In this document: positions 4,770-34,299 of the stretch, piece after piece
Position numbering within the stretch: the stretch's first letter is position 1
Layout of the letters: every line of letters begins with the position of its first letter
DNA from: an uncultured Bacteroidales bacterium
GTDB taxonomy: Bacteria; Bacteroidota; Bacteroidia; Bacteroidales; UBA7960
Direction of reading: 5' to 3'
DNA: 34,521 bases
Assembly (NCBI GenBank): GCA_964601515.1
Contig: CAZRNU010000018.1
Location: 1 to 34,521 of the forward strand
Notes under the pieces: model-generated
The model's database searches: none
Told to the model about the DNA's origin: nothing
The model's input: only the letters and a program-made list of their open reading frames with translations
Position numbers and translations under genes: made by a program

Positions 4770-4790
4770 AAAGTCATATATCAAACAAAA

Positions 4791-4828
4791 AAGGCTGTAA
4801 TGTTTAATACATCACAGCCTTTTTTATT
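4791..4828. terminator. Rho-independent terminator hairpin shared by the convergent recA and lipoprotein gene
   Basis: AAGGCTGT (4791-4798), 14-nt loop, ACAGCCTT (4813-4820), then TTTTTATT. The reverse strand also gives a stem followed by a U-run. Confidence 0.6.
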
Positions 4829-4837
4829 ATATCTAAA

Positions 4838-4874
4838 CCTTAATCTTAATCTCAACCTCAACCTCAACCTCAAT
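4838..4874. repeat. Hexamer tandem array CCTTAAT-CTTAAT-(CTCAAC)x3-CTCAAT; its last unit contains the stop codon of the minus-strand gene 4870..5694
   Basis: Direct reading of 4838-4874. Reverse complement is (TTGAGG)n / (TTAAGA)n. Confidence 0.75.
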
Positions 4875-5694
4875 GATATTCGTATTCAGCAATAATTTTG
4901 TTTAAAACCAAATTACCCTGAGTATCATAACGCCTTTCTCTAATTATATGTGGGAAATTATCTGAATTGGCTTCTGCAGAGTATTTAATTGAGTATGTAT
5001 TCCAGTCAAATTCGGGATATGTGCTGCAAACTGCATCTAAAACAAAATTTGGATTAAGGCAAGAAATTATGCTAAACAACGATTCAGTGTAAATATTGAA
5101 ATTTCTAAAGATTCTTCTGTATGGGTTTTTTGTTTCGCAAATCTTAAAATGATAATATAAAACCACAGATCCATTATTTCTGCTAATTCTTGTGATATTA
5201 CCTCTTGAGTCGTATTGAATGCCTGTTGCAATTATAACTCCATCCTTAAGAATTGAATTTAAAGTGTTGTTATCATAAGCGAAAATATAGTTTGAAATGA
5301 GATTGCCATTGTGGAATCCTCTTATCTCCATTAGATTGTTGCCTAAAAGATTGTATTCAAATTTTTTCTCGTTCTGATCTGCTCCATTTTCAGAAAAATA
5401 AACGTGGTGACTATTGTCTTTAGGAATAATCTGATATTCATAAAGTGGCTCAGAATCAGCCGATTCTTCTTGACCGTATATTAATGCAGAACCTGTTTCT
5501 CCCCTTACGTAATATTCAAGGTAAGCTCCGGATTTAACATTCTGACCACTAAAAAGATCATATTCCCAAACTGTTAAAAATAATTTTTCCTCCGCTAAAT
5601 CTATATCATCGGGAGGATTAATGGGGTCTTTTTCACATGAAAAAGCAACAAATAATGAAATTAAAACAATTAAGGCGCTGTGAATTCTTTTCAT
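4870..5694 (-). CDS. Hypothetical lipoprotein
   Basis: 274 aa. N-terminus MKRIHSALIVLISLFVAFSCEKD is a lipoprotein signal peptide with lipobox Cys. No recognisable catalytic motif. Confidence 0.55.
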   Translation of the reverse strand: MKRIHSALIVLISLFVAFSCEKDPINPPDDIDLAEEKLFLTVWEYDLFSGQNVKSGAYLEYYVRGETGSALIYGQEESADSEPLYEYQIIPKDNSHHVYFSENGADQNEKKFEYNLLGNNLMEIRGFHNGNLISNYIFAYDNNTLNSILKDGVIIATGIQYDSRGNITRISRNNGSVVLYYHFKICETKNPYRRIFRNFNIYTESLFSIISCLNPNFVLDAVCSTYPEFDWNTYSIKYSAEANSDNFPHIIRERRYDTQGNLVLNKIIAEYEYH

Positions 5695-6021: not shown

Positions 6022-8055
6022 ATGAAAAAACATTCAGGTATTTTAATGATAATCGTTATAATGCTTTTTTCTGTTGTTTGCGGAGCGCAAAGCAAAGTTA
6101 TGACCGCTGAAACTTTATGGGAGTTTGGACGAGTAAGTGATATACGTGTTTCCCCCGATGGGAAAACTATATTGTTTGGTATAACATATTTTGATGTAGA
6201 AGCAAACAAAGGCACCAGAAACCTTTATATAATGCCGGTTTCAGGCGGTACTCCCAAGCAAATCACAAATACTTCGATAAATGAATTTAACGCTTTGTGG
6301 CGACCGGATGGGAATAAAATAGGTTTCCTCAGCAGCGAAAGTGGAAGTGTGCAGCTTTGGGAAATGGATATTGATGGAAATAACAGAGAAAAAGTATCTG
6401 ATATTCCCGGTGGAATTTCAGGATTTAATTACTCTCCTGATCTGAAAAATATAGCCTTTTTTAAGAAAGTAAATGTTCTTCCGGGGGTAAAAGATCTTTA
6501 TCCTGACTTACCGAAAGCTAATGCCAGAATTTATGACGATTTAATGTTTCGTCACTGGGATCATTGGACAGACAATTCATTTAATCATGTTTTTATTGCT
6601 TCATATAGTAATGGTCAGGTAGGTGATTATTATGATTTAATGGAAGGTGAGCCATACAATGCTCCATTAAAGCCTTTTGGAGGAATTGATCAGATTATTT
6701 GGAGTCCTGACGGACAAAAGCTGCTTTATACGAGTAAAAAGCTTTTCGGTAAAGCCTACGCAGTTAGTACAAACTCTGATTTGTATTTATATGATTTAAA
6801 AACAAAATCCACTCAAAATCTATCTGAATTTAATAAGGGTTATGATAAAAATCCTGTGTTTTCGCCTGATGGAAAGTTTTTAGCATGGGAAAGCATGGAA
6901 ACTGATGGTTTTGAATCAGATAAAACCAGAATAATGATTTTAGATTTGGCAAAGGGTACATATAAAGATTACTCTAAAGAATTTGACCAAAGCTCTTCCG
7001 GCTTTGTCTGGTCTGCAAAATCAGACTTTCTTTATTTTATTAGCGGCATAAAAGCGACACATCAAATTTTTTCTTTAGAACTTAAAACAGGAAAGATAAA
7101 GCAGCTTACCCAAGGAAGGCATGATTTCACTTCAATAAATCTTGCAGGAAACAGCCTGATAGCAACTCAAATGACTATGGCTATGCCTGTTGAAATTTTT
7201 AGAGTAGATATAAAATCAGGTTCACAAACTCAGATAAGTTTTGTAAATAAAGAAATATTGGATAATTTAAAATTGGCAAAAGTTGAAGAAAGATGGGTGA
7301 AAACAACCGATAACAAAGATATGCTCGTTTGGGTAATATACCCACCTGATTTCGATCCTGCGAAAAAATATCCTACATTATTATATTGTCAGGGTGGGCC
7401 GCAAAGTGCTGTAAGTCAGTTTTTCTCATACCGATGGAACTTTCAAATGATGGCTGCCAATGATTATATAATTGTGGCTCCAAATAGGAGAGGATTGCCT
7501 TCTTTCGGTCAGGAATGGAATGATCAGATTAGTAAGGATTATGGCGGACAAAATATGAAAGATTATTTAAGTGCTATTGATGCGGTTAAAACTGAGCCAT
7601 TTGTTGATGAAAACCGACTTGGAGCAGTAGGAGCAAGTTATGGCGGTTTTTCAGTATTCTGGCTTGCCGGAAATCATGAAAAACGTTTTAAAGCTTTCAT
7701 CGCACATTGCGGAATGTTTAACCTTGAAAGCTGGTATGGATCAACGGAAGAGTTGTTTTTTGCAAACCACGACATTGGAGGTGCATATTGGGAAAATCCA
7801 CGTCCAAAAAGCTACGACTTTTCTCCTCACCGTTTTATAGGCAATTGGGATACACCTATTCTTGTTATACATGGTGAAAAAGATTTCAGAATTCCTTACA
7901 CTCAGGGAATGGAAGCCTTTAATGCAGCTCAATTACAGGGAATTCCCAGCAGATTTCTGTCATTTCCGGATGAAAACCATTGGGTACTTCAACCTCAAAA
8001 TAGTATTCTGTGGCAAAGAGAGTTTTTCAGATGGCTTGATCATTGGTTAAAATAA
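6022..8055 (+). CDS. S9 family serine peptidase (prolyl oligopeptidase / acylaminoacyl-peptidase-like) with N-terminal TolB-like beta-propeller
   Basis: 677 aa. Signal peptide. Repeated SPDG / WSPDG propeller blades in the N-terminal half. C-terminal alpha/beta hydrolase with nucleophile motif GASYGGF (GxSxGG) and DENHW histidine block. Confidence 0.85.
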   Translation: MKKHSGILMIIVIMLFSVVCGAQSKVMTAETLWEFGRVSDIRVSPDGKTILFGITYFDVEANKGTRNLYIMPVSGGTPKQITNTSINEFNALWRPDGNKIGFLSSESGSVQLWEMDIDGNNREKVSDIPGGISGFNYSPDLKNIAFFKKVNVLPGVKDLYPDLPKANARIYDDLMFRHWDHWTDNSFNHVFIASYSNGQVGDYYDLMEGEPYNAPLKPFGGIDQIIWSPDGQKLLYTSKKLFGKAYAVSTNSDLYLYDLKTKSTQNLSEFNKGYDKNPVFSPDGKFLAWESMETDGFESDKTRIMILDLAKGTYKDYSKEFDQSSSGFVWSAKSDFLYFISGIKATHQIFSLELKTGKIKQLTQGRHDFTSINLAGNSLIATQMTMAMPVEIFRVDIKSGSQTQISFVNKEILDNLKLAKVEERWVKTTDNKDMLVWVIYPPDFDPAKKYPTLLYCQGGPQSAVSQFFSYRWNFQMMAANDYIIVAPNRRGLPSFGQEWNDQISKDYGGQNMKDYLSAIDAVKTEPFVDENRLGAVGASYGGFSVFWLAGNHEKRFKAFIAHCGMFNLESWYGSTEELFFANHDIGGAYWENPRPKSYDFSPHRFIGNWDTPILVIHGEKDFRIPYTQGMEAFNAAQLQGIPSRFLSFPDENHWVLQPQNSILWQREFFRWLDHWLK

Positions 8056-8910: not shown

Positions 8911-10047
8911 ATGAAGACAACACTTCCCTCATATCTTAAGATAGTTGTAATTCTTATAGGAATTACTCTTGCCGTATTCATAATGATGGAAGCAAAGTCA
9001 TTATTGGTTCCTATTCTTATTTCGGGTTTGATGGCGGTTTTAATTAGTCCCTTTACCTCATGGCTGGAAAGAAATAAGTTTCCAAAATATCTTTCTGTTT
9101 TTACAAGTGTATTGGGGTTGCTTTTGCTAATTGGGATTTTGTTGTTCTTCTTTTATAATCAGATTCTAGGTTTCGCAAAAGACATTTCACTTTTAGAAAG
9201 CCGTACATCAGAATTGATAAATGAAATCAATGCTTTAATTGAAAAATACTCGGATGCTGCAATACCATTATCTATGTCGCAAATGAAAGACGTGGCTTTT
9301 GGATATATTAGTGATAATGTTTCATCACTCACTCAAGGAATTATGGCAACAGCTTCTACTCTTACTATGTTGTTTATTATTCCGATTTACATTTACCTTT
9401 TTCTCTATTACAGGCATTTTCTTATTTCTTTTTTACTTAAAGCATTTGGAGAGTCGCATAATGAAAGAGTAAACAATGCTATTCATAAAATCAGACAAGT
9501 AATCAAGAACTATGTCAAGGGTATGTTTCTGGTTATTATAATTCTTGCTGTTTTAAATACTGCAACTTTATATGCTTTTGGAATAAAACATGCATTACTT
9601 TTTGGAGTTTTTGCTGCAATGTTGAATGTTATTCCATTCTTGGGTCCGATTTTGGGTTCAGCTCTACCTATTTTTTACGCGCTTCTAACAAAAGACTCTC
9701 TTTGGTATCCAATTGGGATTTTGATTAGTTTTTATATAATACAACTTTTTGAAAGCAACTTGTTTACACCGAAAATTGTCGGGGGCAAAGTTTCAATGAA
9801 CCCATTAATGACAATTTTGGCACTGTTTATTGGCAATTTCATTTGGGGATTAGCAGGTATGATACTTTTTATCCCCGGATTGGCTATTTTAAAAGTAATA
9901 TTTGATGAAATACCAGGCATGGAACCATATGGATATCTTTTGGGAAACGTAAATGCTGAGAAGAAGGAAAATCGCCGAAAGAAGATGGAGGAGAAGATAA
10001 TGCAAGTTGGTAAAAAATTAATAAAAAAAAAGCAGCCGGTTAAATAA
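8911..10047 (+). CDS. AI-2E family transporter (PerM / UPF0118 membrane protein)
   Basis: 378 aa. About 8 predicted TM helices. Conserved C-terminal block PKIVGGKVSMNPLMTILALFIGNFIWGLAGMILFIPGLAI typical of AI-2E/YhhT-like proteins. Confidence 0.75.
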   Translation: MKTTLPSYLKIVVILIGITLAVFIMMEAKSLLVPILISGLMAVLISPFTSWLERNKFPKYLSVFTSVLGLLLLIGILLFFFYNQILGFAKDISLLESRTSELINEINALIEKYSDAAIPLSMSQMKDVAFGYISDNVSSLTQGIMATASTLTMLFIIPIYIYLFLYYRHFLISFLLKAFGESHNERVNNAIHKIRQVIKNYVKGMFLVIIILAVLNTATLYAFGIKHALLFGVFAAMLNVIPFLGPILGSALPIFYALLTKDSLWYPIGILISFYIIQLFESNLFTPKIVGGKVSMNPLMTILALFIGNFIWGLAGMILFIPGLAILKVIFDEIPGMEPYGYLLGNVNAEKKENRRKKMEEKIMQVGKKLIKKKQPVK

Positions 10048-10099: not shown

Positions 10100-11566
10100 T
10101 TACTTAACTGGATTTTTTCCACCTTGTTTTTCATTTGATTGCTTCTTGGATGTTTGTTGTTCTTTATCCGCTATTTGGGGTTTCTGTACATTTTGAACTT
10201 TGTCAATGCTTTTTCCTTTTAAATAATCAGGAAGTTCCAATCCTGCCATTCTGAATAATTCCTCAAATGGTGGAATAGAGCCAAGCATTCCTGACAGGAA
10301 ATTGGCAGTGGCCGGACTTTTACCATCCTTCCCCGAACCCATATTGTCCCAAACAGTTACTTTGTCAATTTTTAGATTTTTGATTGCTTCTACCTGAGTT
10401 TTGACCAATTCCGGTAGTTTATCAGCAATCATCATCATTACTGCATCTTTCGAATTACCTGTGGCAGTTGTAAGTTTTTCAAAGCCTTCAGCTTGTTTAG
10501 ATAGTATTTCAAAGGTACCATTTGCTTGAGCTTGCATTTTCATATAAATAGCATCTGCTTCACCTCTGGCTTCTCTACGCGTTTGTTCTGCAAAAGCTTC
10601 TGCGTCAATCTCCATTTTTTCTTTATTTATTTGAGATGGAACGACAATATCAGCTTTTTGTGTTGCCATTTCTCTTTCGGCACGTGCTACTTCTGCTTTC
10701 ATTTCAGCAGCATAGGCTTCTTCGAGGGCTTTTGCACTTGTAACTTTTTCGGCAGCAACAGCTTTTCTTTCAGCTTCTGCTTCATTTTCACGACGAGTGG
10801 CATTTGAATTTGCAATAGTTATTTTTGCCTGGTTTTCTCCTTCAACTGCTGTAGCATCAGCCTGAGACACCTCGATTCTTTGATCTCTTAAAGCATTTGC
10901 TTCACCGATAGAACCATCCCTGTTTTTTTCTGCAACGCTTTTCTTTGCATCATTTATAGCTTTTGCAGCGGCTTCCTTACCAAGAGCCTCAATATAACCT
11001 GATTCATCATTGATGTCGGTAACGTTTACGTTAATAAGTTTCAAGCCGATTTTTTTCAATTCAGCTTCTACGTTTGCAGACACAGCTGCTAAAAATTTAT
11101 CACGGTTATTGTTGATTTCTTCAATTTCCATAGTTGCAACGACCAAACGCAACTGTCCGAAAATAATATCTTTTGCAAGGTTGCTAACATCTTCCTGCGT
11201 TAGTCCTAGCAAGCGCTCAGCAGCATTATCCATTATGCCCGGTTCGGTTGAAATACCAACTGTAAATCTTGAAGGAACATCAACTCTGATGTTTTGCTGG
11301 CTTAAGGCATTTGTAAGATTAATTTCTATTGATAGAGGAGTAAGATTTAGGAAGGCATAATCCTGAATTACCGGCCAGATAAAGGCTGCACCACCATGAA
11401 TACATTTCGCTGATCTTGTTTCGTTAGATTTGCTTTTTCCCACTTTCCCAAATACAACCAAAACTCTGTCGGACGGACATCTTTTGTAGCGTTTTAATAG
11501 TGAAACAATGATAATGAAAATAAACACTACCAATGCAACAATTCCAAAAGTAATATACTGTGCCAT
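10100..11566 (-). CDS. Flotillin-like SPFH / band-7 protein (YqiK-like)
   Basis: 488 aa. N-terminal TM helix, SPFH domain, long Ala/Glu-rich coiled-coil (EAEAERKAVAAEK..., AEVARAEREMATQKAD). Pairs with the upstream NfeD-like gene as in yqiJ-yqiK. Confidence 0.85.
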   Translation of the reverse strand: MAQYITFGIVALVVFIFIIIVSLLKRYKRCPSDRVLVVFGKVGKSKSNETRSAKCIHGGAAFIWPVIQDYAFLNLTPLSIEINLTNALSQQNIRVDVPSRFTVGISTEPGIMDNAAERLLGLTQEDVSNLAKDIIFGQLRLVVATMEIEEINNNRDKFLAAVSANVEAELKKIGLKLINVNVTDINDESGYIEALGKEAAAKAINDAKKSVAEKNRDGSIGEANALRDQRIEVSQADATAVEGENQAKITIANSNATRRENEAEAERKAVAAEKVTSAKALEEAYAAEMKAEVARAEREMATQKADIVVPSQINKEKMEIDAEAFAEQTRREARGEADAIYMKMQAQANGTFEILSKQAEGFEKLTTATGNSKDAVMMMIADKLPELVKTQVEAIKNLKIDKVTVWDNMGSGKDGKSPATANFLSGMLGSIPPFEELFRMAGLELPDYLKGKSIDKVQNVQKPQIADKEQQTSKKQSNEKQGGKNPVK

Positions 11567-15246: not shown

Positions 15247-15897
15247 ATGAGCGGCAATAGTATTAAGGTTTTTATTGTAGATGACCATGAGATTTTTAGA
15301 AATGGGCTGAAAATGGTTTTAGGACGGCTTAAATATGTTGACCTTGCAGGTGAAGCAGAAAACGGGCAGGAGTTTGTCAATATGCTTAAGGAGGTTGTTC
15401 CTGATATTGTATTAATGGATATTGAAATGCCTGTTCTTAACGGTATAGAAGCATCAAAGACAGCACTGAAACTTCATCCCAAACTAAAAATAATTGCTCT
15501 AACAATGTTTGGTGATGATGAATATATTCAAAGCATGATGGATGTGGGGGCCAAAGGGTTTCTTATGAAAAATATTAATAAAGAAACTCTGGATAAAGCT
15601 ATTCTTACTGTTCATAATGGCGGAAATTATTACTCGGAAGAGTTGTTCGAGTTTTTTACGAAACAGTTTACAAAAGAAAAAGAATCACCTGAATCGGATT
15701 TAAACCTTACCCGCCGAGAAAAAGAAATATTACAACTTCTTTGCGAAGGTTTGAGTAACAAAGAGATTGCTGATGCTTTGTTTATAAGTGAACGCACTGT
15801 TTTAGGACATAAAACAAATCTTCTTACAAAAACCAACACCAAAAACTCATTAAGTTTGATGGCGTATGCTATTAAGAAGAAGCTGGTTGTTATTTAG
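15247..15897 (+). CDS. NarL/LuxR-family DNA-binding response regulator (REC + HTH_LuxR)
   Basis: 216 aa. VDDHEIFRNG...VLMDIEMP receiver. C-terminal LTRREKEILQLLCEGLSNKEIADALFISERTVLGHKTNLLTK LuxR-type HTH. 11 nt downstream of the kinase. Confidence 0.9.
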   Translation: MSGNSIKVFIVDDHEIFRNGLKMVLGRLKYVDLAGEAENGQEFVNMLKEVVPDIVLMDIEMPVLNGIEASKTALKLHPKLKIIALTMFGDDEYIQSMMDVGAKGFLMKNINKETLDKAILTVHNGGNYYSEELFEFFTKQFTKEKESPESDLNLTRREKEILQLLCEGLSNKEIADALFISERTVLGHKTNLLTKTNTKNSLSLMAYAIKKKLVVI

Positions 15898-15943
15898 GTT
15901 TAAGGTATAGGGTATTAGGTATAGGGTATTAGGTATTAGGTTG
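15895..15943. repeat. Heptamer tandem array (TAGGTTT AAGGTAT AGGGTAT TAGGTAT AGGGTAT TAGGTAT TAGGTTG). It fills the convergent gap between the response regulator stop (15895-97) and the hydE stop (15929-31), and overlaps the last 5 codons of hydE.
   Basis: Direct reading with period 7. Same unit family as the arrays at 18221-18255 and 33702-33757. Confidence 0.8.
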
Positions 15944-17011
15944 TCTTTCCAGGAATCTTTTAGAATCGCCCCACTCTCCATATCCTATTTCTGCACCCGC
16001 AAGTTTTATTCTACCTTCAATGCAGTTAGCACAATCTTCCGAGCTTTCATCTGTGCAAGGTTTATTCTCGTACAATTTATAATTGTCGCGGTAAATTCCT
16101 GGAGTTATGTTTGGCATTAAGATGTTTGCTCCAATGCGTATTGCTTTTTCTCTTCCAATTTTATCAATTGCCTGAAGAGCAGTGGTTGCAGCAATATTAA
16201 TGTCTTTCATCATTATTCTTAAAATTGCAACCATCTTTAGTGCTAGTCTGAAACGTTCTTCAAGTGGAATCAGGTTGTCTTTTTCTGAAAATAATGGTGT
16301 ATCGGCGTGCTCAATATATGGTCCCATGCCACACATGTCAATATCCATTTCTTTCATAAATAATAGATCATCTGCCAGATTTTCAATGGTTTGAAATGGC
16401 AACCCAATCATTACACCTGTTCCAACCTGAAATCCGATTTTCCTTAGTAATGATAAGCATTCAATCCTTTTTTCAAAACTATGGTTATTGTCGTTTGGAT
16501 GAAGTTTAGAATATAATTCTTTATTTGAAGCTTCAATACGCAACAGATATCTGTGAGCACCGGCATCATACCATTTGCGATATACTTCTTCAGTTTGTTC
16601 ACCACACGATAGTGTGATACCTAATTTGCCGTTAGATATCTCTTTTATTTGTTTTACCAGATTCTCAATTCTTGCAGTATTATTTTCACTTTGCAATTCA
16701 CCTGATTGAATAACAACAGAGCCGTAATTACTTTTTAAAGCAAAAGCAGCGGCTTCCAAAACTTCATTATCAGTTATATTATATCTTTCTACTTTCTTGT
16801 TGTCTCTTCTTATTCCACAATAATAACAGTTTTTTGAACAAATGTTAGACAGTTCTATTAAGCCTCTCAGATACACTTTATTCCCAATATAATCCTCTTT
16901 TACTTTTGATGATTTTTCGAAAATCAATTTCAAATCATCTTTTTCAGCATTAAGCAAAGTGATTAATTCATTTTTAGAGAAGCTCTCCTTATTTAAAATG
17001 TCTTTAACCAT
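15929..17011 (-). CDS. hydE: [FeFe]-hydrogenase maturase HydE (radical SAM, BioB-like)
   Basis: Radical-SAM CxxxCxxC (CSKNCYYCGIRR). Size and fold of BioB-like HydE. Sits with hydF and hydG. The ORF track start 17059 overlaps hydF by 56 nt; the ATG at 17011 (MVKDILNK...) gives an 8-nt overlap and is preferred. Confidence 0.8.
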   Translation of the reverse strand: MVKDILNKESFSKNELITLLNAEKDDLKLIFEKSSKVKEDYIGNKVYLRGLIELSNICSKNCYYCGIRRDNKKVERYNITDNEVLEAAAFALKSNYGSVVIQSGELQSENNTARIENLVKQIKEISNGKLGITLSCGEQTEEVYRKWYDAGAHRYLLRIEASNKELYSKLHPNDNNHSFEKRIECLSLLRKIGFQVGTGVMIGLPFQTIENLADDLLFMKEMDIDMCGMGPYIEHADTPLFSEKDNLIPLEERFRLALKMVAILRIMMKDINIAATTALQAIDKIGREKAIRIGANILMPNITPGIYRDNYKLYENKPCTDESSEDCANCIEGRIKLAGAEIGYGEWGDSKRFLERQPNT

Positions 17012-18215
17012 TGTTTTTTTGTTTAGTAAATGGTTGAGTAACTCTTTCAAAAATTCCATTAACCCAAGCTATAGCCATTCCATAGTTTGTAATTGGAATA
17101 TTTGCATGTTCGAATGGTTTTAGGCGAGAGATAATCTGTTTTCTTGTTACCATGCATCCGCCACATTGAATTACCATCTTGTAATTATGTATAGGTTTTT
17201 CAACAGCCGCAAGTCCTGCAACTATATCGAAGTTTAGCTTTTTTCCTGTATGATTTTCCAGCCAACGAGGAATCTTATGCCTTCCAATATCATCGCAACT
17301 TACGTGGTGAGTACAAGATTCAAGTATTAATAAGTTATCACCGTCTTCAAGCTTATCAATCATAGGTGTTCCGTTAAGAAATGCTTCGAAATCTCCTCTA
17401 AGCTTAGAAAAAACTATGCTGAAGCTTGTAAGCATTATATCGCTGGGAACAATTTTTGAAACAAAATTAAATACCTGACTGTCGGTAACAACAAGTGCTG
17501 GTTTTATGCCAAGTTTGAAAAAATCTTCCAACTCAGTTTCTTTAACCGACATACAAATACAATCATTATCAAGAACGTCTCTCCATGCCATAACCTGAGG
17601 CAAAATCATTCTTCCTTCCGGAGCTTCTGAATCAATAGGTGTAACCAGCAGTACAACATCTTTTGGCATTACAATCCCTTTAAATAATGAAGGTTTTGCA
17701 TAAGCAGTTTCCGGAATTGTTTTTTTTATTAAATCAACTAACTCATCAAAGTTGTTATGAACTTTGTTACTGAATGAGAAGGGTTTTTTACCTAGAAGGC
17801 TTAATATCTTTTCTGAAAAATCTTTTTCAAGGGGAACTATGTCTGACTTATTATGGATAATTATAAATGGTATTTCATAATAATTAAACTGATTAACAAG
17901 ACTTTCCTCGAATTCTCCATAAGTATTATCAGTGATTAGCATTATCCCAAGATCAATAACGGGAATCACTTGCAGTGTTTTCTCAATTCTAAGTTTTCCT
18001 AAATCACCAATATCGTCAATACCTGCTGTGTCAATAATTATTGCAGGACCAACTCCAAATATTTCAACTGACTTTTTAACAGGATCAGTTGTAGTTCCGG
18101 GATGGTCTGAAACAATCGCAATATTTTGCCCTGTGAGAAGATTGATAAATGAGCTTTTGCCATTGTTTCTTCTACCAAAAATTCCGATATGTGGTTTTAA
18201 ATCTTTGCCTTTCAT
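17004..18215 (-). CDS. hydF: [FeFe]-hydrogenase maturation GTPase HydF
   Basis: 403 aa. N-terminal G-domain (GRRNNGKSSFINLLTG, DTAG, NKSD). C-terminal cluster-binding CTHH...CGGC motif characteristic of HydF. Confidence 0.88.
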   Translation of the reverse strand: MKGKDLKPHIGIFGRRNNGKSSFINLLTGQNIAIVSDHPGTTTDPVKKSVEIFGVGPAIIIDTAGIDDIGDLGKLRIEKTLQVIPVIDLGIMLITDNTYGEFEESLVNQFNYYEIPFIIIHNKSDIVPLEKDFSEKILSLLGKKPFSFSNKVHNNFDELVDLIKKTIPETAYAKPSLFKGIVMPKDVVLLVTPIDSEAPEGRMILPQVMAWRDVLDNDCICMSVKETELEDFFKLGIKPALVVTDSQVFNFVSKIVPSDIMLTSFSIVFSKLRGDFEAFLNGTPMIDKLEDGDNLLILESCTHHVSCDDIGRHKIPRWLENHTGKKLNFDIVAGLAAVEKPIHNYKMVIQCGGCMVTRKQIISRLKPFEHANIPITNYGMAIAWVNGIFERVTQPFTKQKNNG

Positions 18216-18220
18216 TGAAT

Positions 18221-18255
18221 TTAGGTATTAGGTGTCAGGTATCAGGTATCAGGAT
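18221..18255. repeat. Heptamer tandem array TTAGGTA TTAGGTG TCAGGTA TCAGGTA TCAGGAT directly abutting the hydF start codon. On the coding (minus) strand it reads (CCTGATA)n...ATG.
   Basis: Direct reading with period 7. hydF ATG is the reverse complement of 18213-18215. Confidence 0.75.
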
Positions 18256-18261
18256 GTTCAT

Positions 18262-18345
18262 GCCTGAATAAGGTTGACCGTTTGTTTACTGCTTGTCATT
18301 CCGGGCGTAAGCGAGGAATCCCGTTATTCAGAGATTCTTCTTATT
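18262..18345. other. Nested inverted-repeat element in the hydG-hydF spacer. Outer stem CTGAATAA(GG)/(CC)gTTATTCAG encloses inner stem ATTCC-12 nt-GGAAT. A second TTATTCA copy follows.
   Basis: Outer arms 18264-18273 and 18321-18331. Inner arms 18298-18302 and 18315-18319. No U-run follows on either strand. Confidence 0.4.
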
Positions 18346-18360: not shown

Positions 18361-19788
18361 CTAAAAATAAAGATCTCTTTTTCCGTTTTTAAGTTGTTCT
18401 ATCCTTTCTCTAAGCTTCGCTTTAACCTTTTCATCAGGCAGAGCTTCTATATTCTTTTCAATTACTTGCCATCCCTTATGCGATGTGTTTTCAGGAGCGT
18501 AATCTAAAAGGTACTCAGCCAAGGTTAGAATAGCATTTGGAGAACAAAACCTTTTTATAAAACCAGGAACAGAAAATTCCATGAAATGTTCACCTGTTCT
18601 GCCAAGTCGATAGCATGCAGTACAAAAAGAAGGTAACATATTATGGTCAAGAAGTTCCTCTATAATTTCGTTTAAGGATCTTTCATCATTAATACGAAAC
18701 TGACCTTTGTTCAAATCTTGTTCTGTGTTTTGGGTTCTGGAATAACTTCCAAGTTCAAGTTTAGTACCACCGTCAATTTGACTAACACCGTAATTTATAC
18801 ATTCATTTCTAATTTCTTTGGGTTCGCGAGCAGTTAGTATCATACCTGTATAAGGTACCGCAAGCCTTAGTATTGCAATCATTTTTGCAAAGTCGCTGTC
18901 GCTAACAATATATTTTGATCCCATTTGAAGCATTGAAGCATCTTTAATTCTTGGGAAAGAAATTGTATGAGGACCAACATTATAGCAGGCTTCAAGATGA
19001 TTAGTGTGTCTTATTAATCCTAAAACTTCATATCTCCAATCATATAGACCGAATAATGCACCAATGCCAACATCATCTAATCCGGCTTCCTGAGCTCTGT
19101 CTAGAGAAGTTAATCTATAATTGAAGTCAGCTTTTTTACCTCTTATATGATATGTTTTGTATGCTTCAGGGTGGTATGTTTCCTGAAATACCTGAAAAGT
19201 TCCAATTCCGGCTTCTTTTACTTTTCTAAATCCTTCAATTTCTAGGGGAGCAGCATTTATGTTTACTCTTCTAATCTCACCGTTGCCTTTTTTTACCGAG
19301 TATGCAAGCTTTGTGCAATGTGCAATATAGTCGGCATCGTATTGATCGTGTTCGCCAAAAACAAGGATTAAACGTTTTTGCCCGTTATCTTCAAGTGCTT
19401 CTATTTCTTGTGTAATTTCAATATCAGACAGAGTCTTTCTTACAGCATCTTTATTGCTAGCTCTGAATCCGCAATATGTACAGTTGTTTTTACATTTATT
19501 ACCAATGTATAATGGAGCAAAAAGAACGATGCGATTACCATAAATGTTTTCTTTAAGTTTACGAGCACCATCTTTTATCATTTCTACCAGGTCAGGATCA
19601 GTTGTGTTTGTTAAAACAGCAGTTTCCTGCATGCTAAGCCTGTTTTTTGATAGAGATTTTTCAATGATATCTTTAATTAATGCTCTGTCAGGTTTTGCAT
19701 TGTTAAGTATGTCATGAATCTCTTCAGGGTCAATGAAAGGCTGCATTGGCGCATCGGGAATCCTATATTGTTGAGTAATAAATTTCAT
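18361..19788 (-). CDS. hydG: [FeFe]-hydrogenase maturase HydG (radical SAM, ThiH-like tyrosine lyase)
   Basis: 475 aa. CKNNCTYCGF radical-SAM motif. C-terminal auxiliary-cluster cysteines (FCTACYRLGRTGEHF...FCSPNA). ThiH-like length. Confidence 0.88.
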   Translation of the reverse strand: MKFITQQYRIPDAPMQPFIDPEEIHDILNNAKPDRALIKDIIEKSLSKNRLSMQETAVLTNTTDPDLVEMIKDGARKLKENIYGNRIVLFAPLYIGNKCKNNCTYCGFRASNKDAVRKTLSDIEITQEIEALEDNGQKRLILVFGEHDQYDADYIAHCTKLAYSVKKGNGEIRRVNINAAPLEIEGFRKVKEAGIGTFQVFQETYHPEAYKTYHIRGKKADFNYRLTSLDRAQEAGLDDVGIGALFGLYDWRYEVLGLIRHTNHLEACYNVGPHTISFPRIKDASMLQMGSKYIVSDSDFAKMIAILRLAVPYTGMILTAREPKEIRNECINYGVSQIDGGTKLELGSYSRTQNTEQDLNKGQFRINDERSLNEIIEELLDHNMLPSFCTACYRLGRTGEHFMEFSVPGFIKRFCSPNAILTLAEYLLDYAPENTSHKGWQVIEKNIEALPDEKVKAKLRERIEQLKNGKRDLYF

Positions 19789-21347: not shown

Positions 21348-23333
21348 TTAATTAATTCTAGGTAATGTAATTTTAAATTCTGTTCCTGTTTGGCCCGCAT
21401 TTGGGTTTGAGTTTGATTTTACTGCAATTTTACCACTGTGCATTTTAATAATACCATAAACAAGTGGTAGCCCTAATCCGGTTCCTTTTCCTATTTCTTT
21501 AGTTGTGAAAAATGGAGTAAATAGTTTATCCATATTTTCTTCAGGTATTCCTGAGCCTGTATCACAGATGTTTATTTCGATATGTTTATCATCTCCATTT
21601 ACGAATATATTTATCTCCCCACCTTCAGGCATTGCTTCAATGGCATTTTTTTCAATGTTTGTAAAAACCTGAATCATTTGGTCAGGGTCAAGCATTAAGA
21701 ATGGGTCTGATATTCCTGAAATTACAGATGTTTTAATGTTTGCAGGAATAACCACAGAGTCCAAACTGTGATGTAAAAACTCCACAATATCAACCTCCTG
21801 AACTTTAATTTTATTTTTTCTTGCAAAGTTTAGCAAGCCACTAACAATACCTTTGCATCTGTGTGCTTGTTCAACAATCAAAGCAACATCTTTTCGAAGA
21901 GGGTCTTCAGTTTTTAGCTCATCGAGAATAATATTGCTGTACATGGTAATTACACCAAGTGGGTTATTTAACTCATGAGCTATTCCGGCAGAAATTTGCC
22001 CCATATTTGCTAGTTTCTCGGAATGTTTCAACGCAAGCTTTGTGTTTTTAAGCTTTTCATTTGAGTCGTTTAGATCAGCAACATATTTGTGCAATTTCTC
22101 TATTGTATAAGGCAAGCACATTTCAGATTCAGCATAGCCTTGTACTACAGATATTGCATGTTCATAGCATGTTTCATAGCCACAGGCACCACAATTTAAA
22201 TAATCAGAAGTTTTTATCTTACCCATTCTATTAAGAACTTGCTTAATTTCCTCCTGATCAGGGTCAGATATTCTCCTGTCTAGTGCTCTGAATGTTTGCG
22301 AAAGATTTAGGTCTTTGTAATTATCTATATTCTGATTCCACTTTTCTAAATCTAGATTAGCAATTTTCTCTTTAACATATTTGCTGATTTGGGATCGTTT
22401 AAAGAAATACTTGTTCTTTTCACTCATCCCCGGGCCTAAAATACAGCCTTCACAGCAAAGAAGTTCCAGATTATAGTTTGAAATTTCGCCTCTTTCAAAT
22501 TCTTTGATAGCTTCTTTAAAGTTGTGCTTTCCAGAATCTACTATAACATTTCCTTCTGCGATATTATCGCTCTTTTTTAGGTTTTGCGACAAGCCTCTTG
22601 TTACAGGGAAAATGGCACCCATTGCTGATTGCGGTCCGTCAAAATCTCCAGCTTCAACTTCGCTTGAAGTTATTTTATATTTCTCAAACAGATCGCGTAA
22701 TTCTCGGAATGTTATTGCAACATCAATTTCGTCAGATTCAGCTTTTTTTGCAAAACAAGGCCCTATAAAAACTGTTTTTACATTATTCCCGTATGTTTCT
22801 TTTATTAGTCTTGATGTTGCCACCATCGGAGAAACAATAGGAGCAATTTTATTTACAAGTTCCGGATGAAAATGTTCTATATAAAAAACTACTGCCGGAC
22901 AATCTGAAGAAATAAATGTTTGTTGTGAATTGTCTTCTAATAGTTGATTATATTTTTTTGCAACAAGATCAGCGCCGAATGCTACATCAAACACTTTATC
23001 GAATCCCAGTTTTCTTAACATTCCTGTAAGAATTCTATAGTCATTTATATCAGTAAATTCAGCTGGGAAGCTAGGTGCAAGCAGTGCATATACCGGCGCT
23101 TCTTTTGTTTGCAAGAGTGATTCTACCTCTGATTTTAAATCCAGTACAACTTTAGCATTTTGACTACAAACAGAAACACAATTACCACATCCAATACATC
23201 TTTCACTTAGTACCTCTGCCTGTCCGTTTATTATTTTTATTGCTTTAACAGGACATTCCCTCACGCAGGTAAAGCAAACCCTGCATTTATCTTTCACTGT
23301 GAATACTAATTCATTTCTTTTTGCATGTCCCAT
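21348..23333 (-). CDS. [FeFe]-hydrogenase-like (H-cluster-type) domain fused to a histidine kinase: putative sensory hydrogenase kinase (HydS-like, no PAS)
   Basis: 661 aa. aa 17-56: two 4Fe-4S ferredoxin motifs (CRVCFTCVRECP, CIGCGNCVSVC). aa ~70-300: domain alignable to adjacent HydA, with SSDCP (cf. TSCCP), GPCFAKKAE (cf. MPCTAKKFE) and LLCCEGCILGPG (cf. EVMACPGGCINGGG). An extra 4-Cys cluster, NCGACGYETC...EMC. Coiled-coil linker. H-box AGIAHELNNPL. N-box EKNAIEAMPEGG. G-boxes CDTGSGIPEE and GKGTGLGLPLV. Confidence 0.8.
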   Translation of the reverse strand: MGHAKRNELVFTVKDKCRVCFTCVRECPVKAIKIINGQAEVLSERCIGCGNCVSVCSQNAKVVLDLKSEVESLLQTKEAPVYALLAPSFPAEFTDINDYRILTGMLRKLGFDKVFDVAFGADLVAKKYNQLLEDNSQQTFISSDCPAVVFYIEHFHPELVNKIAPIVSPMVATSRLIKETYGNNVKTVFIGPCFAKKAESDEIDVAITFRELRDLFEKYKITSSEVEAGDFDGPQSAMGAIFPVTRGLSQNLKKSDNIAEGNVIVDSGKHNFKEAIKEFERGEISNYNLELLCCEGCILGPGMSEKNKYFFKRSQISKYVKEKIANLDLEKWNQNIDNYKDLNLSQTFRALDRRISDPDQEEIKQVLNRMGKIKTSDYLNCGACGYETCYEHAISVVQGYAESEMCLPYTIEKLHKYVADLNDSNEKLKNTKLALKHSEKLANMGQISAGIAHELNNPLGVITMYSNIILDELKTEDPLRKDVALIVEQAHRCKGIVSGLLNFARKNKIKVQEVDIVEFLHHSLDSVVIPANIKTSVISGISDPFLMLDPDQMIQVFTNIEKNAIEAMPEGGEINIFVNGDDKHIEINICDTGSGIPEENMDKLFTPFFTTKEIGKGTGLGLPLVYGIIKMHSGKIAVKSNSNPNAGQTGTEFKITLPRIN

Positions 23334-33083: not shown

Positions 33084-33101
33084 TTAATAAGTTTTATTAT
33101 A

Positions 33102-33140
33102 AAGAGGCTGTCTCATAATTTGAGATAGCCTCTTTTTTTA
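33102..33140. terminator. Rho-independent terminator after hoxH
   Basis: AGAGGCTGTCTCA (33103-33115), 5-nt loop, TGAGATAGCCTCT (33121-33133; one mismatch), then a 7-T run. Confidence 0.55.
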
Positions 33141-33237
33141 TTCTTTTTATTGAGTTTTCAATTGGGCTTGGATTTAATATTTAGGTAAACTTTGTTTACT
33201 TTTGCCGCGAATATTATTAAATCTTTTAAGTGATAAA

Positions 33238-33690
33238 ATGAAAAAAACTTTAATATACGGATATGGAAATCCGGGCAGACAAGATGATGGTGTAGGTGCT
33301 AGATTTGTCGAATTGATGGATTCCTGGATAATGGAAAAAAACATCACAAATGTTTTTACTGATTGTAATTATCAATTAAATATTGAGGATGCATCTCTTA
33401 TATCAGATTATGAAAGAGTTATTTTTGTTGATGCTTCAGTTGTTGAAGATGTAAAAGATTACAAATTGGAAAATATAGAGCCTAATGATGCTACTATTGA
33501 ATTTACAATGCATGCAGTTTCCACATCTTATGTTGTTGATTTATGCCGCAAAATTTATAATAAAAATCCGGAATCTCTGGTTTTGCATATAAAGGCTTAT
33601 GAGTTTGACTTTAAAGAAGAACTCACTTCACAAGCTGAAGCTAATATGCTAAAAGCATTTGAGTTTCTAAAAAGCTACCTTTTAAAATAA
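33238..33690 (+). CDS. hoxW: Hydrogenase maturation endopeptidase (HoxW / HycI family)
   Basis: MKKTLIYGYGNPGRQDDGVGARF N-terminus (GxGNxxxxDDGxG metal-binding signature), further His/Asp residues, ~150 aa. The ATG at 33238 is preferred over the upstream ORF track start 33202. Confidence 0.8.
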   Translation: MKKTLIYGYGNPGRQDDGVGARFVELMDSWIMEKNITNVFTDCNYQLNIEDASLISDYERVIFVDASVVEDVKDYKLENIEPNDATIEFTMHAVSTSYVVDLCRKIYNKNPESLVLHIKAYEFDFKEELTSQAEANMLKAFEFLKSYLLK

Positions 33691-33701
33691 TTCTTATATT
33701 T

Positions 33702-33757
33702 CCTTACACCTTATACCCCATACCCTATACCCTATACCTTATATCTAATACCTTATT
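33702..33757. repeat. Heptamer tandem array CCTTACA CCTTATA CCCCATA CCCTATA CCCTATA CCTTATA TCTAATA CCTTATT, the reverse complement of the GGTAT-type units. It sits in the convergent gap between hoxW and nikR.
   Basis: Direct reading with period 7, 8 units. Confidence 0.8.
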
Positions 33758-33765
33758 TGGTACTA

Positions 33766-34164
33766 CTAAAGGTCTGTCATTACGAGTTTGCCGTGATGTA
33801 TCCCTTTGGTTCCAATTATTCTATCGGCCAGCTCAAGTAATTTTTTTGCTTTTCCTTTAATCGCAATAGTTTCTAAGCAAAGGTCATGTTCGAGATGCAC
33901 ATGTTGTGTAGATAATATCAGATCATGGTAATCGTGCTGAACGTGCATTAACTTGTTGTTAAGCTCTCTTTTATGATGGTCATAAACAATAACAATAGCT
34001 CCTGCTACTGTTTTATTTTCATCAACTTTTTCTGAAACAAGAGTGCTTTTTATCAAATGCCTTATCGCCTGTGATCTGTTTGGGAAACTATGTTTTTTCA
34101 CCATTATGTCCAAATCACTTAGAATATCTTCTTCTAATGAAACACCAAATCTTTTTACTTGCAT
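33766..34164 (-). CDS. nikR: Nickel-responsive transcriptional regulator NikR (ribbon-helix-helix + C-terminal Ni-binding domain)
   Basis: N-terminal RHH (KRFGVSLEEDILSDLDIMVKKHSFPNRSQAIRHLI). C-terminal HVHLEHDLC block matching the HxH...C nickel ligands of E. coli NikR (H87/H89/C95 spacing). The ATG at 34164 is preferred over 34185. Confidence 0.85.
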   Translation of the reverse strand: MQVKRFGVSLEEDILSDLDIMVKKHSFPNRSQAIRHLIKSTLVSEKVDENKTVAGAIVIVYDHHKRELNNKLMHVQHDYHDLILSTQHVHLEHDLCLETIAIKGKAKKLLELADRIIGTKGIHHGKLVMTDL

Positions 34165-34299
34165 ATGAATAGTTTTGATTATCAAATAATAATCATTTAA
34201 TACATGGCTTGCATTAAATTAATTAAGTAAAATTAATATTTATTTTGGCGAAAATGAAAATAATGTATCTTTGCCACGAAAATATAAAAAGGTGGCACG

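Follow-up and report, generated by a model that had tools for sequence, protein, structure and literature searches.

Heptanucleotide repeats that are dispersed through the intergenic gaps of bacterial genomes form a class of simple-sequence repeats (SSRs), in which the 'long SSRs' of Mrazek are reportedly counted as well. The present analysis concerns three arrays of the unit GGTATWR in a stretch of 34,521 nucleotides from an uncultured Bacteroidales bacterium (assembly GCA_964601515.1, contig CAZRNU010000018.1, positions 1 to 34,521; this whole stretch is called the window below), where they stand at the boundaries of hydrogenase-related genes. The arrays are very likely ordinary members of the dispersed intergenic heptanucleotide SSRs and not specific to hydrogenase genes, and we infer that they have no dedicated role in hydrogenase regulation.

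The closest described repeats are the heptamers of Rehm et al. (2015), GGGAATC in Xanthomonas and GGGGA(C/T)T in Nostoc, which form quadruplexes (PMC4692102). Their G-rich strand begins where the gene on the same strand has its stop codon, they are under-represented between divergent open reading frames (ORFs), they occur as tandemly inverted pairs, and they are dispersed genome-wide beside unrelated genes. In related species they occupy the same gaps but vary extensively in length and sequence, and no function was identified (PMC4692102). The arrays of the window resemble these repeats in their placement and in occupying shared gaps with variation; at foreign loci, arrays of this unit have unrelated neighbours and inverted pairs are found. 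They differ in their unit, GGTATNN, which has mostly GG runs, with no four G3 tracts and no predicted G-quadruplex; in their host, an AT-rich member of the Bacteroidota (34% GC); and in having five to eight units, where the preferred number of Rehm et al. is four.

Another heptamer, TAACTGA, was found as direct repeats in Beggiatoaceae, Cyanobacteria and some Bacteroidetes (MacGregor 2015, PMC4679880). These repeats mostly lie just upstream of start codons without a Shine-Dalgarno sequence and differ between strains by indels in 7-nt steps; reversed copies also follow stop codons, and in Bacteroidetes the repeats are mixed with other heptamers (PMC4679880). The window arrays are likewise intergenic heptamer direct repeats, but their unit differs and only one of the three is start-proximal. 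Among the cyanobacterial repeats named STRRs, STRR1-3 have the units CCCCAGT, TTGGTCA and CAACAGT. Such 7-bp tandem repeats separate hupS from hupL and also precede hoxW; a hairpin can form in some of them, and no function is known for them (PMC2670836). The window arrays share with them the 7-bp period and the position at the borders of hydrogenase genes, but they occur in another phylum, have other units and stand alone without a hairpin. The association with hydrogenase genes appears to be coincidental for both. Finally, the (ATCTTTC)n repeat in the 5' untranslated region (5'-UTR) of hmw1A and hmw2A in Haemophilus influenzae, the one heptamer array whose mechanism is understood, forms a long hairpin with a G-rich arm, is subject to RNase III cleavage and has at least 11 units in nature (PMC12721329). 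The array before hydF in the window is also a heptanucleotide repeat in a leader, with a copy number that would change by slippage; unlike hmw, this leader is predicted to be unstructured, the array has five units, and the target is a housekeeping maturation GTPase instead of a surface adhesin.

An earlier note on this DNA had described 7-nt tandem arrays at three sites, and they are present there. Tandem Repeats Finder reports a period of 7 at all three (15894-15941, 6.9 copies; 18223-18253, 4.4 copies; 33708-33743/33756, 5.1 copies). When two tandem GGTATWR units were sought over the whole window with at most two mismatches, 14 matches were obtained against 2.46 expected, a count that none of 100 shuffles reached, and 13 of the 14 fell inside the three arrays. 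The arrays are tandem heptanucleotide repeats with a copy number above chance. All of them lie in gaps at gene ends or starts, as the note had said, and their contact with coding sequence is limited to terminal codons; its gene identities were also borne out when they were checked with Pfam and NCBIfam.

Site 1 (15894-15942, + strand) comprises about seven units in the G-rich GGTATWR form (GGTTTAA, GGTATAG, GGTATTA, GGTATAG, GGTATTA, GGTATTA, GGTTGTC) and fills the 31-nt convergent gap between a NarL/FixJ-family response regulator gene (15247..15897, + strand) and hydE (15929..17059, - strand; TIGR03956, 356 bits). The native TAG stop of the regulator gene (15895-15897) lies in the first, degenerate unit. 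At its other end the array covers the hydE stop (15929-15931) and the last four sense codons of hydE (QPNT); the overlap with both gene ends had been recognized correctly, with five codons counted in place of four. Site 2 (18221-18255, + strand) has about five units, G-rich on the + strand (GGTATTA, GGTGTCA, GGTATCA, GGTATCA, GGATGTT), in the gap between hydG (18361..19788, - strand; TIGR03955, 506 bits), which is upstream and whose stop is 105 nt from the array, and hydF (17004..18215, - strand). On the sense (-) strand of the hyd genes the array reads CCTGATA, CCTGATA, CCTGACA, CCTAATA, CCTAAAT and is followed by TCA-ATG. It is start-proximal, as had been stated, but not directly abutting, as 5 nt separate its last full unit from the hydF ATG (18215). 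Site 3 (33702-33757, - strand) has about eight units, G-rich on the - strand, the sense strand of nikR (33766..34185, - strand; NikR_C, 108 bits). It occupies the 75-nt convergent gap between nikR and the gene of a HoxW-like hydrogenase maturation protease (33202..33690, + strand; TIGR00072, 60.3 bits with a cut-off of 47.45; no Pfam match at 1e-3). The G-rich 5' end of this array is 8 nt off the nikR stop (33766-33768), and the opposite end is 11 nt off the protease stop (33688-33690).

The spread of such arrays was assessed by scanning one genome per GTDB species (596 Gb) for four tandem GGTATNN units. At least 120 DNA stretches matched, where about one is expected by chance by our own estimate (20 specified bases, 596 Gb, both strands). 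The matches listed come from more than 15 phyla and include many Bacteroidota (Saprospiraceae, Chitinophagales, Ignavibacteria), Chloroflexota and Cyanobacteriota; among them, several metagenome-assembled genomes (MAGs) matched on two or three contigs, and the common units are GGTATTG, GGTATCA, GGTATTA, GGTATGA, GGTATAA and GGTATAG. Six of ten ORFs that abut the listed arrays have solid Pfam domains of unrelated functions, DegT, RF3, a methyltransferase and an oxidoreductase among them. In the MAG of the closest relative (L123, introduced below), another contig (L070) carries GGTATTG/GGTATTA x7 and TCAATAC x12, which flank a gene for a DcuC-type carrier, with a large adhesin-like gene nearby. 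Within the window, heptamer arrays occupy three of eight gaps of at least 20 nt in the right part and none of eight in the left part, which is no significant enrichment at the hydrogenase island (Fisher p = 0.2). The link to the island that the earlier note had drawn was not upheld: the arrays behave as the generic intergenic repeat that the note itself had named as the outcome that would undo it.

Placement was studied by strand-symmetric greedy ORF calling on 120 of the matching foreign loci (L003-L122). Among the matches listed with less than 56% GC, 75 of 80 arrays are intergenic and four lie between divergent genes; the class is confined to non-coding gaps and scarce between divergent genes. 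The two strands of an array are not equivalent with respect to the neighbouring stop codon. For genes that have the G-rich form on their sense strand, the median distance from stop to array is 7-9 nt and 23 of 35 arrays begin within 15 nt, whereas for genes with the C-rich form on their sense strand the median is 87-114 nt and only 4 of 36 are that close, again among the matches listed; the difference has p = 4e-7 to 0.02, depending on the filter. The same rule is seen in arrays without an inverted partner and in other units of the same loci with periods of 6-8 (16 of 25 versus 0 of 22 within 15 nt, p = 8e-5). The window arrays follow the published stop-codon placement. Site 1 lies at the regulator stop (0 nt), site 3 begins 8 nt after the nikR stop, a hexamer array elsewhere in the window starts inside the TGA of ORF 4870..5694, and at site 2, which ends 5 nt before hydF, the G-rich form is on the non-coding strand.

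Several candidate causes of this polarity were tried and discarded. The supply of stop codons by the repeat does not account for it: the stop of the gene is near (median 16 nt) even for G-rich arrays that contain no stops, and it is distant (median 135 nt) even for C-rich arrays that contain stops in all three frames. A layout of stop, array and intrinsic terminator, suggested by the recA gap described below, was likewise rejected as a general model, as a hairpin followed by a T run was found after 3 of 39 G-rich arrays and, on the C-rich side, between stop and array in 5 of 57 cases, with a background of 3.5% for both. Inverted partners cannot be the sole cause, since solitary arrays are polar too. 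Such partners do exist at foreign loci: among the matches listed, 14 of 103 G-rich arrays have a reverse-complement array within 150 nt on their 3' side, and 2 of 103 have one on their 5' side. Pairs with the G-rich member first were seen at L076 (GGTATGA x4 and CATACCT x4, 3 nt apart), L021, L022, L035, L094 and L095. Quadruplexes are not predicted for the window arrays. Runs of three or more G number 2, 0 and 3 per array, four being needed; ViennaRNA predicted none, and the minimum-free-energy structure computed with it was unchanged when quadruplexes were allowed.

Syntenic loci of relatives show how the orthologous gaps have changed. All HydF homologues that bear a source name are labelled as Bacteroidetes or Bacteroidales MAGs. 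A relative with 84% HydF identity is represented by L123 (GCA_018335675.1, isolate CROMO_A_117), L124 (a European Nucleotide Archive re-assembly) and L125; an 81% relative by L126 (Joint Genome Institute, JGI); and 76-77% relatives by L127/L128 and L129. The hydF-proximal array has five units in the window, 12 in L123 and nine in L124, the latter two being of the same unit family. The hydF leader of L126 has a different heptamer, CCTAAAA x5, which abuts the ATG. No array precedes hydF in L127 and L129, where the gap is 18 nt (L127) or an unrelated 90 nt. The gap between regulator and hydE holds seven units in the window and eight units of other variants in L123-L125, and its array is missing in L127 and L129; L127 has no neighbouring regulator gene, and L129 has the kinase and regulator genes with an extra DUF2141 gene between hydE and the regulator. 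In L126 this gap is 204 bp long (10245-10448) and contains two copies of an inverted 9-mer array pair (CTTATATGN x3 facing CATATAAGG-type units); a 62-aa ORF called across it is probably spurious.

L123 and L124, which represent one strain, show no mismatch over 21.2 kb, and their sole difference is a 21-nt indel of three units (~9934-9954) in the hydF-proximal array. It is either real population heterogeneity or an assembler collapse of a 21-nt higher-order repeat. A JGI assembly matches the 12-unit form, so that the strain of the 84% relative counts 12, 12 and 9 units in three assemblies. A metagenome scan for alleles of the hydF array junction returned one contig, identical to L123. The strain of the window itself was recovered from two samples (ERZ17914141, in which the contig has about 6x coverage; Logan SRR5581382, L002) with 100% identity over 11.5 kb, the hydF array included; because of this identity, L002 says nothing on copy-number variation. 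Judged from these loci, arrays of the class share their position in relatives while length and unit vary, and such turnover at orthologous gaps fits fast-evolving simple-sequence repeats rather than conserved operator sites. The earlier note had suspected slippage-prone tracts, and this part of its proposal stands: length and unit vary among relatives, and the 21-nt indel is the sole difference between the two assemblies.

If the arrays are ordinary dispersed repeats, replication slippage would create them and resize them in steps of 7 nt, or of 14 or 21 nt where a higher-order pattern exists. They persist in non-coding gaps only, with the G-rich strand beginning at or overlapping the stop of a gene on the same strand, as for the regulator and nikR, and several gaps of this Bacteroidota lineage, some in the hydrogenase region included, happen to carry them. 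In the convergent gaps they would be 3' untranslated sequence, site 1 also supplying the hydE stop. At hydF, site 2 would give the sense RNA a G-poor, unstructured leader up to the ATG, and a change in its length would alter the length of the leader without switching hydF on or off.

Four points weigh against this interpretation. Dispersal was observed in relatives and in other phyla, and the source genome was seen as a single 34.5-kb contig. The contrast between 9 and 12 units could be due to assembly collapse, the NCBI and JGI assemblies both having 12. Three of the four convergent gaps of the window carry an array, and those filled by heptamers, two in number, have no intrinsic terminator, so that the arrays may have a role at transcript 3' ends. 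Lastly, in three species (the window, L123/L124 and L126) a G-poor heptamer array stands directly before the hydF ATG despite differing units, which could reflect selection for the leader.

The last point leads to the proposal that the hydF array is a selected cis-acting translation leader for Shine-Dalgarno-independent initiation, with copy number as a graded rheostat, possibly acting via ribosomal protein S1 or a cold-shock-type RNA-binding protein as in MacGregor's TAACTGA proposal. In Bacteroidota, initiation can proceed independently of a Shine-Dalgarno sequence, and an unstructured G-poor leader is compatible with this. The hydG-hydF intercistronic sense RNA folds no better than shuffled sequences (z = 0.0 to 0.4), and the arrays of the window, L123 and L126 are predicted to be single-stranded in the centroid structure. 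Further G-free heptamer arrays (ACTTTTA, ATACACT) stand just before hydG in L123 and L126 but not in the window. There are also precedents, as most TAACTGA repeats lie directly upstream of start codons, including those of Flexibacter litoralis, a member of the Bacteroidetes (PMC4679880), and in H. influenzae the heptamer repeat of the hmw 5'-UTR has been proven to act as a rheostat of expression (PMC12721329). However, the 76-77% HydF relatives do without any array, and the long hairpin that the hmw mechanism needs was absent from the folded leaders of the window, L123 and L126. A bias at start codons, with the C-rich form on the sense strand nearer the ATG, is not claimed, since for about 60 start-adjacent arrays p varied from 0.01 to 0.76 with the filter. 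Taken together, a selected leader is unlikely, and the hydF array may possibly be of use as an unstructured G-poor leader.

The gap before hydF has a further feature. A 29-nt element, GTCATTCCGGGCGTAAGCGAGGAATCCCG (18295-18323, + strand), follows the hydG stop, 3' of hydG and ahead of the hydF array, and is conserved in the 84% and 81% relatives (L123 ~9885-9913; L126 ~7892-7920), where it adjoins the array directly. Part of it forms the only stem in the centroid fold of the hydG-hydF region. It may resemble the small hairpin repeats of many MAGs; it has no match in Rfam and no further copy in the fetched loci, which cover ~1 Mb. The idea that this hairpin element generally accompanies the arrays was rejected, as it is present at the orthologous site only.

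The arrays could also be contingency loci, in which slippage phase-varies the translation of hydF or the C-terminus of HydE, as the earlier note had suggested, and hence hydrogenase maturation. The unit length is not divisible by three, the array of site 1 touches the hydE coding sequence, and copy number differs among relatives and between two assemblies of one strain. Nevertheless, the hydF array lies wholly outside the ORF, and a repeat in an ORF that switches expression was not found here. The regulator has the same C-terminus (...KKLVVI*) whether or not a relative carries the array, and site 1 therefore starts exactly at the native regulator stop. HydE is conserved through EWGDSKxF, and the tail beyond it varies in every relative (ERQPNT, GRTT, KKLTN and others). 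As the units carry TAA on the hydE sense strand, the 7-nt period places a stop in every frame within 21 nt, so that slippage at site 1 can alter only the last one to four non-conserved HydE residues. The overlap of hydE with the array has no functional meaning. In addition, the window strain was identical in two independent samples, and arrays of the class adjoin housekeeping genes, an argument that Rehm et al. likewise used against phase variation (PMC4692102). Phase variation of hydF or HydE is thus very unlikely.

The earlier note had also suggested that the repeated units serve as binding sites for a regulator of the island, which would be the NarL-family response regulator, a local receiver or NikR. 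The surroundings of the arrays are in favour of this: the NarL-family regulator gene, with the gene of a Cache/PAS/HisKA_3 kinase alongside, is next to site 1, and nikR is next to site 3. In E. coli the NarL heptamer is TACYYMT, typically arranged as 7-2-7 inverted pairs in promoter regions. The C-rich strand offers TACCTAA, which matches this E. coli consensus at six of seven positions, but no exact TACYYMT was found in the arrays, compared with 35 in the whole window. Unlike NarL-type sites, the units are direct repeats without spacing and mostly stand at gene 3' ends, two of the three arrays being at convergent 3' ends and not at promoters. Scans for sigma-70 promoters and for terminators gave nothing at the arrays, the promoter model being unsuited to Bacteroidota. 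Both the regulator gene and the kinase gene are retained in L126 and L129, which have other repeats or none, and GGTATNN x4 occurs at at least 120 unrelated loci as well. Regulator binding is highly improbable. An origin of the arrays from a mobile or REP-like element (palindromic extragenic repeat or miniature transposable element) is equally improbable: they are dispersed at gene ends and 14 of the 103 listed foreign arrays have a hairpin-capable reverse-complement partner within 150 nt, but the window arrays have no local inverted partner, terminal inverted repeats or target-site duplications, no hairpin palindrome of the REP/BIME type (~20-40 nt) or other inverted repeat was found in them, their flanks have nothing in common beyond the repeat unit, and at orthologous positions they change by gain or loss of units and by point mutation and not by insertion or excision. 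The genome-wide element that had been proposed is in essence rightly called a generic intergenic repeat, though not a REP-like one, as it consists of tandem simple-sequence repeats and not of palindromes.

Other repeats and hairpins were found in the window. The left 15 kb, in which no GGTATWR-type copy had been seen, indeed has none, but it contains other short-period arrays. A hexamer array (TTGAGG/TTAAGA)n (4831-4873, - strand) is located in the convergent gap behind recA, 62 nt beyond the recA stop and outside the hydrogenase region; on the - strand it begins inside the TGA stop (4870-4872) of ORF 4870..5694. Its presence behind recA indicates that the short-period arrays of the source genome are not confined to the hydrogenase island. 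The recA gap (4770-4873) also has a strong bidirectional hairpin (AAAAAAGGCTGT...ACAGCCTTTTTT), which is followed by the hexamer array; read on the strand of ORF 4870..5694, this gap is a clear single case of a stop, G-rich array and hairpin in succession. At the contig end, an octamer array of CACATTGG (10-104, strand not assigned) has about 12 copies and a 24-nt higher-order period; it lies upstream of an AhpC/Bcp-type peroxiredoxin gene (165-620), and the contig assembly probably broke within it. Rfam gave no family match anywhere in the window. Between hoxH and the maturation protease gene there is a strong terminator-like hairpin (33101-33135; 15 pairs, T run), and the protease gene may therefore be transcribed apart from hoxFUYH.

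As regards the gene content, the window also encodes HydABC-type and HoxFUYH-type hydrogenases, according to Pfam and NCBIfam. In its longest form, the hydE ORF shares 56 nt (17004-17059) with the end of hydF. The hydE start is called later in L123, L127 and L129 (overlaps of 8-23 nt) and in the longer form in L124 and L126; since gene callers disagree among relatives, this start is uncertain. At 21348-23333 (- strand) a sensory-type [FeFe]-hydrogenase/histidine kinase fusion is encoded (Fer4, Fe_hyd_lg_C, FeS, HisKA, HATPase_c), which is presumably akin to the putative H2 sensors of the histidine-kinase-linked group C. A receiver protein and a receiver-kinase hybrid come next, an arrangement that is kept in L123, L126 and L129.

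The placement rule itself is already published (PMC4692102). The only mildly new point is its extension to units which, at least for the window arrays, form no predicted quadruplex. If the rule is general in this sense, quadruplex formation cannot be its cause. We tentatively consider it possible, though doubtful, that such a general rule would instead come from a constraint or a repeat-generating process at gene 3' ends that is coupled to transcription or translation; as an example of a constraint, G-rich but not C-rich untranslated RNA might be tolerated right after a stop codon. As the strand-specific placement of the quadruplex-forming heptamers is shared by window arrays that lack quadruplex potential, the quadruplex explanation is weakened. 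In practical terms, the arrays break short-read assemblies and could serve as strain markers in metagenomes. Arrays of the GGTATNN type are very widespread, especially in Bacteroidota, Chloroflexota and Cyanobacteriota, and those of the window should be annotated neither as regulatory sites of the hydrogenases nor as phase-variation switches.

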